DNA from: an uncultured virus (IMG/VR IMGVR_UViG_3300042987_003191)
Taxonomy: Duplodnaviria; Heunggongvirae; Uroviricota; Caudoviricetes
Virus record (IMG/VR): IMGVR_UViG_3300042987_003191
Length of the DNA: 64,000 nucleotides
Reading direction: 5' to 3' (one strand)
In this document: in pieces, positions 472 through 61,188 of the stretch
Position numbering within the stretch: position 1 is the stretch's first letter
How the letters are laid out: every line of letters begins with the position of its first letter
The notes under the pieces: model-generated
What the model was told of the DNA's origin: nothing
The model's input: only the letters and a program-made list of their open reading frames with translations
Databases searched by the model: none
Made by a program: the position numbers and the translations under genes

Positions 472-660
472 CTATTTGGCTTGGCTGTCAAGCTTTGCCA
501 CGGGGAAACCGTTGGCAATGCGACAGTAGCGTTCGGGATGGATCTGCAGGCATTTGTCAAGGCCCTCCTTGTTGGCCATTACGTTAGGGGAGGCGATAAT
601 GGCAAATGCGCCGAGTCCAATGACTAGGTTTACCAGCAGGAATGAAGCTGCGTCTTTCAT
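472..660 (-). CDS. small membrane-anchored hypothetical protein
   Basis: 62 aa with a hydrophobic N-terminal segment and two Cys; overlaps the stop of the upstream rlpA-like gene (ATGA). Confidence 0.6.
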   Translation of the reverse strand: MKDAASFLLVNLVIGLGAFAIIASPNVMANKEGLDKCLQIHPERYCRIANGFPVAKLDSQAK

Positions 661-1007
661 AGTCTTGAGATGCAGATGGAAGCTTCGCCTTGAGAAGGGG
701 AAGCGATGCGAGCAAAGCTGCCGTAGGACAAGTCCAAGATTCGGCCTCCGTAGTATGGGCCGCGATCAACGACTGTCACTGTCACTGACTTTCCATTGTT
801 GCGGTTCTTCACACGCAGTCGCGTGCCAAATGGAAGCCAGGGGTGGGCAGCAGTCATGGAATAGGCATCGAACGTGGAGCCGCTTGCAGTGCGCTGGCCG
901 TGGAAGCCATCTGAGATTCCGTAGTGCGAGGCGTAGCCACATTCAAGAGCTGCTTGCGCTTGTAAAGGGCAAAGCAGTAGAAGGGAAAGAAAAAGACGTT
1001 TCATCAA
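657..1007 (-). CDS. rlpA: RlpA-like (DPBB) lytic transglycosylase with signal peptide
   Basis: ASHYG..FHGQRTASG..FD...TAAHPWLPFGT.LRV.N..NGKSV.V.V.DRGPY..GRILDLS motif; N-terminal signal peptide. Confidence 0.9.
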   Translation of the reverse strand: MMKRLFLSLLLLCPLQAQAALECGYASHYGISDGFHGQRTASGSTFDAYSMTAAHPWLPFGTRLRVKNRNNGKSVTVTVVDRGPYYGGRILDLSYGSFARIASPSQGEASICISRL

Positions 1008-1102: not shown

Positions 1103-1111
1103 TGTTATGAT
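1103..1111 (+). promoter_or_regulatory. extended -10 promoter (TGtTATGAT)
   Basis: TGnTATGAT about 6 nt upstream of the structured segment starting near 1117. Confidence 0.55.
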
Positions 1112-1116
1112 TTCTA

Positions 1117-1290
1117 GGCATTCGGTCCTGGCGGCTTAATTGCTGCTCTCGTCTTCGGGCGAGCCGTGAGGGTGGACGCCTCTGATGGTGCGGGCAAAGC
1201 CGTATGGCTTAGCCAAGGAGTTATGCATGGTCTCCTGCGAGGCGCATCATCTTCCTTGTATCTTTAGGGAAAGGGGCATCGGAGGATGTG
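1117..1290 (+). ncRNA. candidate structured ncRNA, family unassigned
   Basis: Nested helices including a cUUCGg hairpin (1148-1163), 1184-1192/1243-1251 and 1178-1183/1272-1277; own promoter and terminator; no ORF. Confidence 0.6.
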
Positions 1291-1320
1291 AAGAGAAGGG
1301 GCTGTAAGGCCCCTTTTCTT
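1291..1320 (+). terminator. intrinsic terminator
   Basis: AAGGGGC...GCCCCTT stem followed by a T-rich tract. Confidence 0.7.
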
Positions 1321-1351: not shown

Positions 1352-1519
1352 ATGAAGCTTTCTGCAGAGCAGGAAAGAGAAAGGCTTAAGCGATGGATGG
1401 CAAGCGGGGAAGTTTATGATCCTCGCAACGAAGATGATTTTGATACATGGTCGCTAGGGATGGAGCCTCTTCCTGGTGATCGTTCTTGGGCAAAGAAAAA
1501 GCCCCTTAAGGGGCTTTAG
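1352..1519 (+). CDS. small hypothetical protein (55 aa)
   Basis: AGGAGA RBS, then MKLSAEQERERLKRWMASGEVYDPRN...; below the ORF-track length cut-off. Confidence 0.55.
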   Translation: MKLSAEQERERLKRWMASGEVYDPRNEDDFDTWSLGMEPLPGDRSWAKKKPLKGL

Positions 1520-5279: not shown

Positions 5280-6035
5280 TCAATAGTCGTTTTCGTTAAT
5301 TGTTTGTAAAGGCATGGCGTCAGGAAGCGGCTCGTTTTCCGGCTCCGCATCGAAACTAATGGTCTCAGCGGACGCAAGTAGAGAATTGCCCCTGCGCTCT
5401 TCCGTAGCCTTGGCCTCTTTCTCCTTTTCAATGGTGGAAGACAAATCTTTCAGGAACTTTCTGTAGGACGTGTCTTGATTCTCCACTTGCTTAATTTCAT
5501 TGAGGCCAAGCAGCTTCGCTTGTTCGACCAGGGAGTTCTTGGCCACGTTAAGGAACGATGCGTCGCCAGCGCTTTCTTCGATCTTCACCATTTCCTTCCC
5601 ACCATCGTCACCACCGTCCATAATGGTGACTGTTTTCTTGCGCTTACTATTTTCAAAGCTACGAAGAGCCAAGTCTTTCAGTTCCATTTGTTCTTTCAAG
5701 AGACGCGCTCTGTGCGTATCTTGATTCTTCAGAATTTCCTGCGTATATAAATCTCTGTTGAAATGACGATCACCATTAACTGTTTCTTTGCTTAGTTTTA
5801 GAACATTCGCAATCTGGCGATTGCTCATTTTTGCAGCAAGAAGCTCTTGTACCATCCATCGCCTAACGCCAAGCATTTCTTTGGTGTAGATGCCGGCGCC
5901 ACGGTTGCCACCATGTGATTTGTGTTCTCGAATGGCTTCGTATTGCGTGATTGGTACTCCCGCCTTCGCTAAAGCGTTTCTTGCATAGGCCTCTTCTTCT
6001 TCAGGCGTAGCAAATTCAATCTCAGGACGAGGCAT
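5280..6035 (-). CDS. HTH protein, probable terminase small subunit
   Basis: HTH (MSNRQIANVLKLSKETVNGD), helical core and GDASFLNVAKNSLVEQAKLLGL motif typical of TerS-like proteins; acidic tail. Confidence 0.55.
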   Translation of the reverse strand: MPRPEIEFATPEEEEAYARNALAKAGVPITQYEAIREHKSHGGNRGAGIYTKEMLGVRRWMVQELLAAKMSNRQIANVLKLSKETVNGDRHFNRDLYTQEILKNQDTHRARLLKEQMELKDLALRSFENSKRKKTVTIMDGGDDGGKEMVKIEESAGDASFLNVAKNSLVEQAKLLGLNEIKQVENQDTSYRKFLKDLSSTIEKEKEAKATEERRGNSLLASAETISFDAEPENEPLPDAMPLQTINENDY

Positions 6036-58872: not shown

Positions 58873-58897
58873 AGCCTCCCTTTTGTTACACTAATGG

Positions 58898-58950
58898 TAC
58901 GTTCACCCCGCAAGGGGCGCATGACTCGCTGGTACGGAACGGGACCAGCA
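58898..58950 (+). promoter_or_regulatory. glutamine-II riboswitch (Downstream-peptide RNA motif)
   Basis: CGTTCA-CCCC-gcaa-GGGG-CGCA...GGAACG with pseudoknot GCTGGT/ACCAGC; upstream TGtTACACT promoter. Confidence 0.85.
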
Positions 58951-61115: not shown

Positions 61116-61188
61116 TGGCGGAGACAGGACTTGAACCTGCGACCTCCAGGGTATGAACCTGGCGAGCTACCAACTGCTCTACTCCACT
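61116..61188 (-). tRNA. tRNA-Met(CAU), initiator-like
   Basis: Full cloverleaf; anticodon CAT; 1:72 mismatch and A11:U24 initiator hallmarks; no encoded CCA. Confidence 0.9.

Follow-up and report, generated by a model that had tools for sequence, protein, structure and literature searches.

Based on comparative analyses of a 64,000-nucleotide (nt) stretch of viral DNA (IMG/VR record IMGVR_UViG_3300042987_003191, hereafter the window) and of related loci, we propose that positions 1103-1320 hold a gene for a structured RNA, placed in an intergenic switch region close to the replication genes. The gene measures ~175 nt, or ~200 nt including the terminator hairpin, around a core of 172 nt, and represents a non-coding RNA family that is uncatalogued in Rfam. 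On present sequence evidence it is a core, autonomous gene of the phage group around Synechococcus phage S-CBS4. The locus has the features of a stand-alone, bacterial-type non-coding RNA gene, i.e. a predicted promoter and terminator of its own, a covarying fold and no shared open reading frame (ORF).

Architecture of the RNA gene

The core consists of two multi-helix domains clamped by a single closing helix, P1, and folds on the + strand. Helices and signals are listed with their positions in the window; A1 is an alignment and R1 a covariance model, both described below.

1103-1111 (+), extended -10 promoter TGTTATGAT (TGnTAnnnT), no good -35
1118-1289 (+), structured RNA core closed by P1; the single match of R1 across the whole 64-kb window (1112-1292, 199.5 bits)
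1118-1123 / 1284-1289 (+), P1, GCATTC/GGATGT; all 6 pairs vary
1125-1177 (+), Domain 1, four-way junction (P2, P2a, P2b, P2c)
1125-1128 / 1174-1177 (+), P2, GUCC/GGAC; encloses P2a, P2b and P2c
1130-1147 (+), P2a, hairpin GGCGGC-ttaatt-GCTGCT with loop UUAAUU
1148-1163 (+), P2b, hairpin CTCGTC-TTCG-GGCGAG with loop UUCG
1164-1171 (+), P2c, mini-hairpin CC-GUGA-GG of 2 bp with a GNRA loop
1172-1173 (+), domain-1 linker GU
1178-1277 (+), Domain 2, three-way junction; its long arm bears two extra hairpins
1178-1183 / 1272-1277 (+), P3, GCCTCT/AGGGGC; 6/6 pairs compensatory
1184-1192 / 1243-1251 (+), P4, 9 bp, GATGGTGCG / CGCATCATC; carries P4a and P4b
1193-1214 (+), P4a hairpin
1216-1236 (+), P4b hairpin with loop UUAUGCAUGGU
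1237-1242 (+), linker GCGAGG following P4b
1252-1270 (+), P5 hairpin (TTCCT/AGGGA arm); sequence and length vary, the hairpin is kept
1278-1283 (+), joining strand AUCGGA from P3 to the 3' strand of P1; invariant in A1
1291-1320 (+), intrinsic terminator, 13-bp stem AAGAGAAGGGGCU/GGCCCCUUUUCUU with loop GUAA, then a U tract

The original prediction, a reading of the letters alone, had drawn this multi-branched RNA between a promoter TGtTATGAT and a terminator. Every helix that it named, GGAG/CTCC within P4 included, was found in its place when checked against the sequence, RNAfold of the window sequence returns the same architecture, and both flanking signals are kept in all 80 distinct close homologs. 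In these, TGNTANNNT ends 6 nt (78 homologs) or 7 nt (2 homologs) before P1, and a strong hairpin directly follows P1 in 80/80, of which 78 pass a U-run test while the other two have an interrupted U tract. The terminator stem sequences differ among lineages with retention of the hairpin, and the U tract pairs with an A-rich run upstream. Transcription is predicted to start at ~1117-1119. A simple sigma-70 scan, which requires a -35, left the promoter at 1103-1111 unlisted. No RNA polymerase gene was seen among the ORFs of the 64-kb window, and transcription would therefore be carried out by the host enzyme.

Comparative support for the fold

The decisive support for the fold is comparative; folding energy is insufficient by itself. 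With the terminator included (1110-1320), the + strand reaches z = -3.64 in RNAfold and none of 200 shuffles folds equally well, compared to z = -2.06 for the minus strand. For the core only (1118-1290), the + strand gives z = -1.96, with 6/200 shuffles as good, and the minus strand z = -0.86. An energy better than that of shuffled controls, on which the original prediction had staked its fold, is hence found for the complete unit, while that of the core alone is modestly unusual, i.e. only marginally better than shuffles.

Covariation was assessed in a structure-blind MAFFT alignment of 33 distinct homologs from 45 upstream regions (A1), and in model-fitted alignments of 77 distinct rows (A2) and of 32 distinct, divergent rows (A4). 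The structure tested comprises 58 pairs, drawn from the window's own fold plus visible covariation, and in the slid controls the pairing partner is shifted along the alignment.

A1: 95.5% of cells paired, 28/58 pairs changed on both sides; slid controls 41.7-51.1% and 7-9 pairs
A2: 95.6% of cells paired, 33/58 pairs changed on both sides; slid controls 40.9-52.0% and 7-11 pairs
A4: 95.7% of cells paired, 49/58 pairs changed on both sides; slid controls 40.9-46.7% and 17-26 pairs

The pair counts from A2-A4 lean towards the model, to whose structure these alignments were fitted; A1 is the sole clean test, yet the structure tested in it derives partly from the window fold. RNAalifold, applied to A1, predicted 44 pairs, 19 of them with changes on both sides, and the broken cells total 2. 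Homologs folded singly mostly adopt the same architecture. The homolog collection and covariation test that the original prediction had suggested thus stand at 113 distinct sequences and 28-49 compensatory pairs out of 58, in agreement with a structured RNA.

Individual helices follow the same pattern. Compensatory pairs amount to 4/6 of P1 in the close set and 6/6 in the divergent set, and to 6/9 (A1), 7/9 (A2) and 8/9 (A4) of P4. In P2, U-A is exchanged for C-G, and C-G for U-A in 35/77 rows of A2. An alternative in which UCC at 1126-1128 extends P1 is disfavoured, as the GUCC/GGAC pairing of P2 shows U-A/C-G exchanges both ways. The many G-U pairs, from which the + strand had originally been deduced, are conserved across A2, with the U-G pair 41/48 in 77/77 rows and the G-U pair 22/33 in 72/77. 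Together with the poor minus-strand fold, they argue that the element acts as a + strand RNA.

A scan of unpaired columns for pseudoknots or tertiary pairs (stacks of at least 3, varying) returned known helices only. The domain-1 linker and the P4b loop might form a 3-bp GUG:CAU contact, the bases of which hardly vary and hence give no covariation signal. Docking of the GNRA loop on P1 is not supported: in the close set a P1 of GUGG or GCGG type accompanies 13/15 GNAA loops and one of GCA type 63/64 GNGA loops, but the divergent set, judged by eye, mixes both loop types with the same P1 type. Self-complementary loops were also considered as dimer contacts and rejected: three divergent lineages have GAAA in place of the P2a UUAA, and the 4-nt palindrome (CAUG or CUAG) present in almost every P4b loop is of a kind that arises often by chance.

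Invariant bases

Some 40 bases are invariant or very nearly so, and are found in the two junctions, the GNRA loop, the P4b loop (..CAUGG..) and the AUCGGA strand, while helix sequences drift freely provided that pairing persists. The family-wide constants are GGYYCU, GCCG-NRA-GGNUGRRC, a P4b loop with CAUGG or CAU, the purine-rich linker after P4b, and AUCGGA. The last is kept in nearly all aligned rows, with one AUCGGC variant (L186), although two wider pattern scans demanded ATCGGA and so guaranteed AUCGGA in the loci found that way. The P2c loop is GNRA in 81/81 parsed sequences; the script counted GUGA 60, GUAA 13, GCGA 4 and GCAA 2 times, and two loops that it misparsed are GUAA and GCAA by eye.

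The wider divergent set, which as far as can be told is new here, reveals which loops are dispensable. Close relatives share the P2a loop UUAAUU and the P2b tetraloop, but divergent members have GAAA or other sequences in their place, lengths vary, and P2b may shrink away.

Distribution among S-CBS4-like phages

The window can be assigned to a cyanosiphovirus of the S-CBS4 group, because of its gene content and a portal protein that is 67% identical to that of S-CBS4, with the remaining isolates all far lower. Its large ORFs include the portal, the large terminase, a head protease, the major capsid protein and a 1908-amino-acid tape measure, and further ORFs encode tail fibre proteins, a lambda-J-like tail protein, a primase/helicase and a ribonucleotide reductase. 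DNA runs containing most of the window are freshwater, drinking-water, aquatic and marine metagenomes.

Related loci were fetched from IMG/VR via the flanking proteins, an RlpA-like lipoprotein and the product of ORF55 (32 + 44 loci), and blastn found the RNA in 74 of the 76; the other two are truncated by the contig end immediately upstream of the rlpA-like gene. Scans with degenerate patterns, derived from the invariant columns, added 51 + 49 IMG/VR stretches and 63 metagenome stretches, and a looser pattern 107 IMG/VR stretches, 80 of which were turned into loci. The covariance model R1 has exactly one match in each of 100/100 sources (three of them cut or rearranged contigs), and matches 8/9 further sources and then 37/38 others. 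This totals 113 distinct RNA sequences, of which the 110 that reach 150 nt or more measure 161-204 nt; the lowest identity to the window RNA is 58%. Among the best 80 portal relatives, nine contigs reach 60 kb or more and eight of these have the RNA; the ninth, which is also without the rlpA-like gene, probably does not cover the region.

In S-CBS4 itself, a 416-nt unannotated gap separates gp092, the ORF55 homolog, from gp093, the RlpA-like protein annotated as 'lipoprotein precursor'. R1 detects an RNA copy there (105.3 bits, E 8e-35; record positions 64539-64732, minus strand), preceded by TGCTACTAT and followed by a terminator, which corrects the annotation of this seemingly empty gap. A blastn search of 1000-1560 against isolated phages gave no match, although R1 later detected the S-CBS4 copy, and an exact 31-mer from the window had 0 matches in IMG/VR. 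The degenerate pattern also had 0 matches in one genome each of 185,579 prokaryote species, a weak negative, as the pattern required the P2a loop that divergent members lack.

The metagenome contig L138, in which unrelated sequence takes over after the initial 75 nt of the RNA and in which the order of the rlpA-like operon is inverted, is probably an assembly chimera. L191, a 17437-base contig binned in a Methylacidiphilales metagenome-assembled genome, encodes a ribonucleotide reductase 76% identical to that of the phage and is probably a mis-binned phage contig; R1 has no match in the 2.4 kb of it that were examined.

Independence from neighbouring genes

The RNA gene lies between two protein genes, neither of which shares its transcription unit as predicted.

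657-1007 (-), RlpA-like DPBB lipoprotein gene, divergent (Pfam DPBB_1, E 2e-22)
1352-1519 (+), ORF55, gene of a 55-amino-acid acidic protein, conserved and without family, outside the RNA unit

ORF55 follows on the same strand, 58-134 nt past the RNA, in 67 of 78 close pattern-derived loci. Of the rest, six are too short, one is rearranged and four (L178, L182, L189 and L132) have an endonuclease VII/HNH-like gene of ~200 amino acids on the opposite strand after the RNA terminator. This gene separates the RNA from ORF55 in the first three, and in L132 no ORF55 lies within 784 nt. Of the 37 divergent loci, 16 have ORF55 on the same strand and 12 have it convergent, and in 9 there is no ORF55 within 1.5 kb; RNA, promoter motif and terminator persist despite its inversion or loss. 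The RlpA-like gene is the most constant neighbour, upstream and divergent in 33/37 divergent loci and in the same position in every close locus with enough upstream DNA, bar the rearranged L138.

ORF55 also occurs apart from the RNA. Its homologs are found in 85 records of Synechococcus T4-like cyanomyoviruses, directly after nrdB, and it is accordingly a widespread small cyanophage protein. These homologs overlap both nrdB, at its end, and the gene that follows (e.g. L243 2001-2141), leaving no room for the RNA, and the best R1 match at these loci is 5 bits with filters off. Because ORF55 is inverted, absent or separated while the RNA unit stays intact, gene order argues that the RNA is not the leader of ORF55; the evidence from inverted or missing ORF55 is, as far as can be told, likewise new here. 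This is in line with the independent transcription unit originally predicted.

A few features of these flanks are recorded as such. The free-standing endonuclease gene (L178 594-1205 and L132 1096-1701, both on the minus strand; phrog_1035, E 1e-19) looks like a homing insertion beside a highly conserved target. Just past the RNA terminator, L048, L063, L066, L168, L176 and L209, which belong to different lineages, carry an insertion of ~45 nt with two hairpins whose loops are mutually complementary (CCACTGTTGCACAGTGG / GAGCTTGTGCAACAAGCTC type), and which could be a small mobile or regulatory element. Many relatives, e.g. L058 and L043, have two ~18-nt direct repeats (CTATACAAGNNCAGCCGA type) ahead of ORF55, which may be promoters or protein-binding sites; the spacer between terminator and ORF55 is shorter in the window and has one CTATGCTTAGAG unit at 1324-1335.

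Relation to known RNAs

A search of the whole window with Rfam 15 (4227 models) at the gathering score, the kind of scan proposed along with the original prediction, found a tRNA and a Glutamine-II riboswitch elsewhere and nothing at the RNA, in agreement with its unrecognised family. Relaxing the threshold to E up to 10 for the window, S-CBS4 and one divergent copy gave nothing but spurious hits resembling terminators, beyond the core or at its margin. A tRNA or tmRNA is rejected, as ARAGORN and Rfam alike find tRNA-Met at 61116-61188 alone. So is 6S RNA (RF00013), for which there is no Rfam match and whose long rod with a central bubble differs from the multi-branched fold. Judged from the reading frames, the locus is non-coding: the longest + strand ORFs in 80 homologs range over 11-63 amino acids in differing frames, A1 has 1-nt indels, and no reading frame is conserved. 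A literature search returned nothing on this RNA, and none of the S-CBS4 papers is, by title or abstract, about an RNA.

Six RNA sequencing runs contain part of the window, and the four best, from two studies, were compared. Their contigs, 85-99% alike, span 700-1562 including the RNA, with the flanks covered equally. Each contig comes with one depth figure, from which ends, strand and level are not readable, and DNA carry-over is possible. The breaks, several contigs ending at 1307 and others beginning at 1278, resemble assembly-graph breaks. These contigs are neutral on a discrete transcript, and none was seen.

Several phage RNAs offer points of comparison. The stable RNAs C and D of phage T4, and the Rfam families ROOL and GOLLD, are orphan, stand-alone structured RNAs from phages and prophages; like them, the RNA described here is phage-borne and non-coding, with its own transcription signals and an elaborate, covarying fold. 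It differs from ROOL and GOLLD in being much smaller, not beside tRNA genes, restricted to S-CBS4-like cyanosiphoviruses and without sequence or model similarity to either. The pRNA of phi29 is phage-encoded, ~170 nt long, transcribed from its own promoter and multi-branched, and acts in trans as a shaped RNA. Size, own promoter and multi-branched fold are common to both, but the phi29 pRNA model (RF00044) does not match, the cyanophage RNA is without a conserved complementary loop pair, and the window virus, with its terminase, portal and tape measure, is a siphovirus and not a phi29-like podovirus. Riboswitch aptamers of the lysine, cobalamin or glmS size are alike in size, in the invariant bases of their multi-helix junctions, in the GNRA loop and in a closing helix P1 that leads straight into an intrinsic terminator. 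Unlike riboswitches, however, the RNA is not consistently upstream of any same-strand gene, and no riboswitch model matches.

The catalogue of viral csRNAs by Fremin, Bhatt and Kyrpides (2023; PMC10690425) draws on the same source and type of evidence, i.e. IMG/VR intergenic regions and covariation, with candidates of 29-151 nt. Because these reach only 151 nt, the whole 172-nt RNA would not be among those listed (PMC10690425), whereas a sub-helix of it might be included.

The RNA is a core gene of widespread viruses that infect freshwater and estuarine picocyanobacteria, and its exceptionally clean covariation provides a ready seed for an Rfam family. Complex RNAs with many invariant junction bases have repeatedly proved to be riboswitches, ribozymes or ribonucleoprotein cores. 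With a copy in a culturable phage (S-CBS4 on Synechococcus sp. CB0101), the function is directly testable.

Proposed mode of action

We propose that the RNA operates as follows. Host RNA polymerase would start at ~1118 from the extended -10 promoter and end at the intrinsic terminator, yielding a discrete, stable RNA. This RNA would act in trans via its three-dimensional shape, with the conserved junction and loop bases forming a specific surface or pocket. The partner would most likely be a host or phage protein, less likely a small ligand, and the RNA would act neither by base pairing nor as the leader of the next gene. Action through shape is suggested by the location of the invariant bases at junctions and in two loops, without a single seed, and by the drift of the helices; the capping of helices by GNRA- and UUCG-type loops fits as well. 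To a trans-acting RNA that binds a specific host or phage protein we assign a probability of roughly 0.5.

Several points weigh against this proposal. No recognisable RNA-binding or RNA-processing protein is encoded near the RNA gene in the window, and the evidence fits protein binding, ligand binding, catalysis and self-assembly alike. The marginal folding energy of the core, the leaning of the model-fitted alignments, the partial dependence of A1 on the window fold and the lack of a discrete transcript among the RNA-library contigs count on the same side.

Alternatively, and as a possible though clearly less probable explanation, the RNA may work without a dedicated protein, its invariant core binding a metabolite or ion, or catalysing a reaction, as a free RNA in trans, i.e. 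as a ligand-sensing aptamer, a ribozyme or a self-assembling unit and not as a protein platform. Dense invariant bases at multi-helix junctions, a pattern typical of riboswitch aptamers and ribozymes, and the GNRA loop that is always kept are compatible with this, as are the near-constant palindrome of the P4b loop and the finding that no protein partner co-varies in presence with the RNA. On the other hand, the models of known ribozymes and riboswitches give no match even with E relaxed to 10, no covarying pseudoknot was found, and 4-nt loop palindromes are frequent by chance, that of P2a being replaced by GAAA in divergent members. If true, the RNA would be the first member of a new class of compact RNA devices of cyanosiphoviruses, and a phage would possess a free-standing gene for an aptamer or a ribozyme.

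Regulation by base pairing with host or phage mRNA is improbable. Phage RNA repressors that act by pairing exist, i.e. the c4 RNA of P1 and the CI RNA of P4, the gene has its own promoter and terminator as in classical trans-acting small RNAs, and the invariant single-stranded AUCGGA and GGNUG might serve as seeds. However, ~115 of the 172 nt are locked in covarying helices, and what is conserved among the unpaired bases comes as short pieces in five separate places instead of a single accessible seed.

That the RNA instead is a cis-regulatory leader, a riboswitch or attenuator of ORF55 with the terminator as expression platform, is very unlikely. The order of promoter, RNA, terminator and gene matches the layout of a transcription-terminating riboswitch, and ORF55 does follow on the strand of the RNA both in the window and in the 67/78 close loci. 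This is contradicted by the gene order elsewhere, as ORF55 is convergent in 12/37 and absent from 9/37 divergent loci, an endonuclease gene on the opposite strand follows the terminator in 4 loci, the stretch from terminator to ORF55 holds additional hairpins and a variable spacer, and the cyanomyovirus homologs of ORF55 go without the RNA. Neither was a conserved pairing between the 5' half of the terminator and the RNA body seen in 80 aligned 3' regions, inspected by eye and not exhaustively.

Two further explanations are still less plausible. A type III toxin-antitoxin-like pair, with the RNA as antitoxin, ORF55 as toxin and the terminator setting their ratio, would share the order of promoter, RNA, terminator and small toxin gene found in toxIN-type loci, but Tandem Repeats Finder reports 0 repeats in 1000-1600, and ORF55 is acidic, familyless, alone in cyanomyoviruses and often convergent or absent. 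An element that works as DNA (replication origin, packaging site or protein-binding array) or hides a small protein gene would suit the intergenic switch region near replication genes and the ORFs of 33-40 amino acids in the window copy, but the kept G-U pairs would be A-C on the opposite strand, shuffles fold as well as the minus strand of the core, compensatory changes follow an RNA-like pattern, the GC skew profile shows no special feature at the locus, and ORF frame and length differ among homologs.

Other features of the window

The Glutamine-II riboswitch aptamer (Rfam RF01704) lies at 58897-58949 (+), with 38.6 bits compared to a gathering score of 33, and fits a picocyanobacterial phage. 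The tRNA-Met, with anticodon CAT, is on the minus strand and the sole tRNA of the window according to ARAGORN and Rfam.

The minus-strand ORF at 5280-6035 is a homolog of S-CBS4 gp086 (57% identity), which is annotated as 'Rnase E'. This label derives from the name of PHROG 645 alone, Pfam is without a match, and MSNRQIANVLKLSKETV in the product resembles a helix-turn-helix, because of which the nuclease name is doubtful. Beyond the rlpA-like gene, p62 (472-660) has a hydrophobic N-terminal stretch, as read by eye from the sequence. The structure model of p114 (107-451, true start probably 385) is poor (pLDDT 67.8), and a fold search gave no match below E 0.7. Like the gp086 homolog, p62 and p114 had been considered as partners of the RNA and were rejected.

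A probable bidirectional terminator, the perfectly palindromic hairpin AAAGCCCCTTAAGGGGCTTT, occupies 1498-1517, where it overlaps ORF55 at its 3' end and is turned towards convergent genes on the minus strand. On the other side of the RNA gene, a CCATTGTGCCATG motif at 1058-1070, ~50 nt upstream of the RNA promoter, is kept in close and moderately divergent relatives and might serve the rlpA-like operon as its divergent promoter, or else be a site for a regulator.

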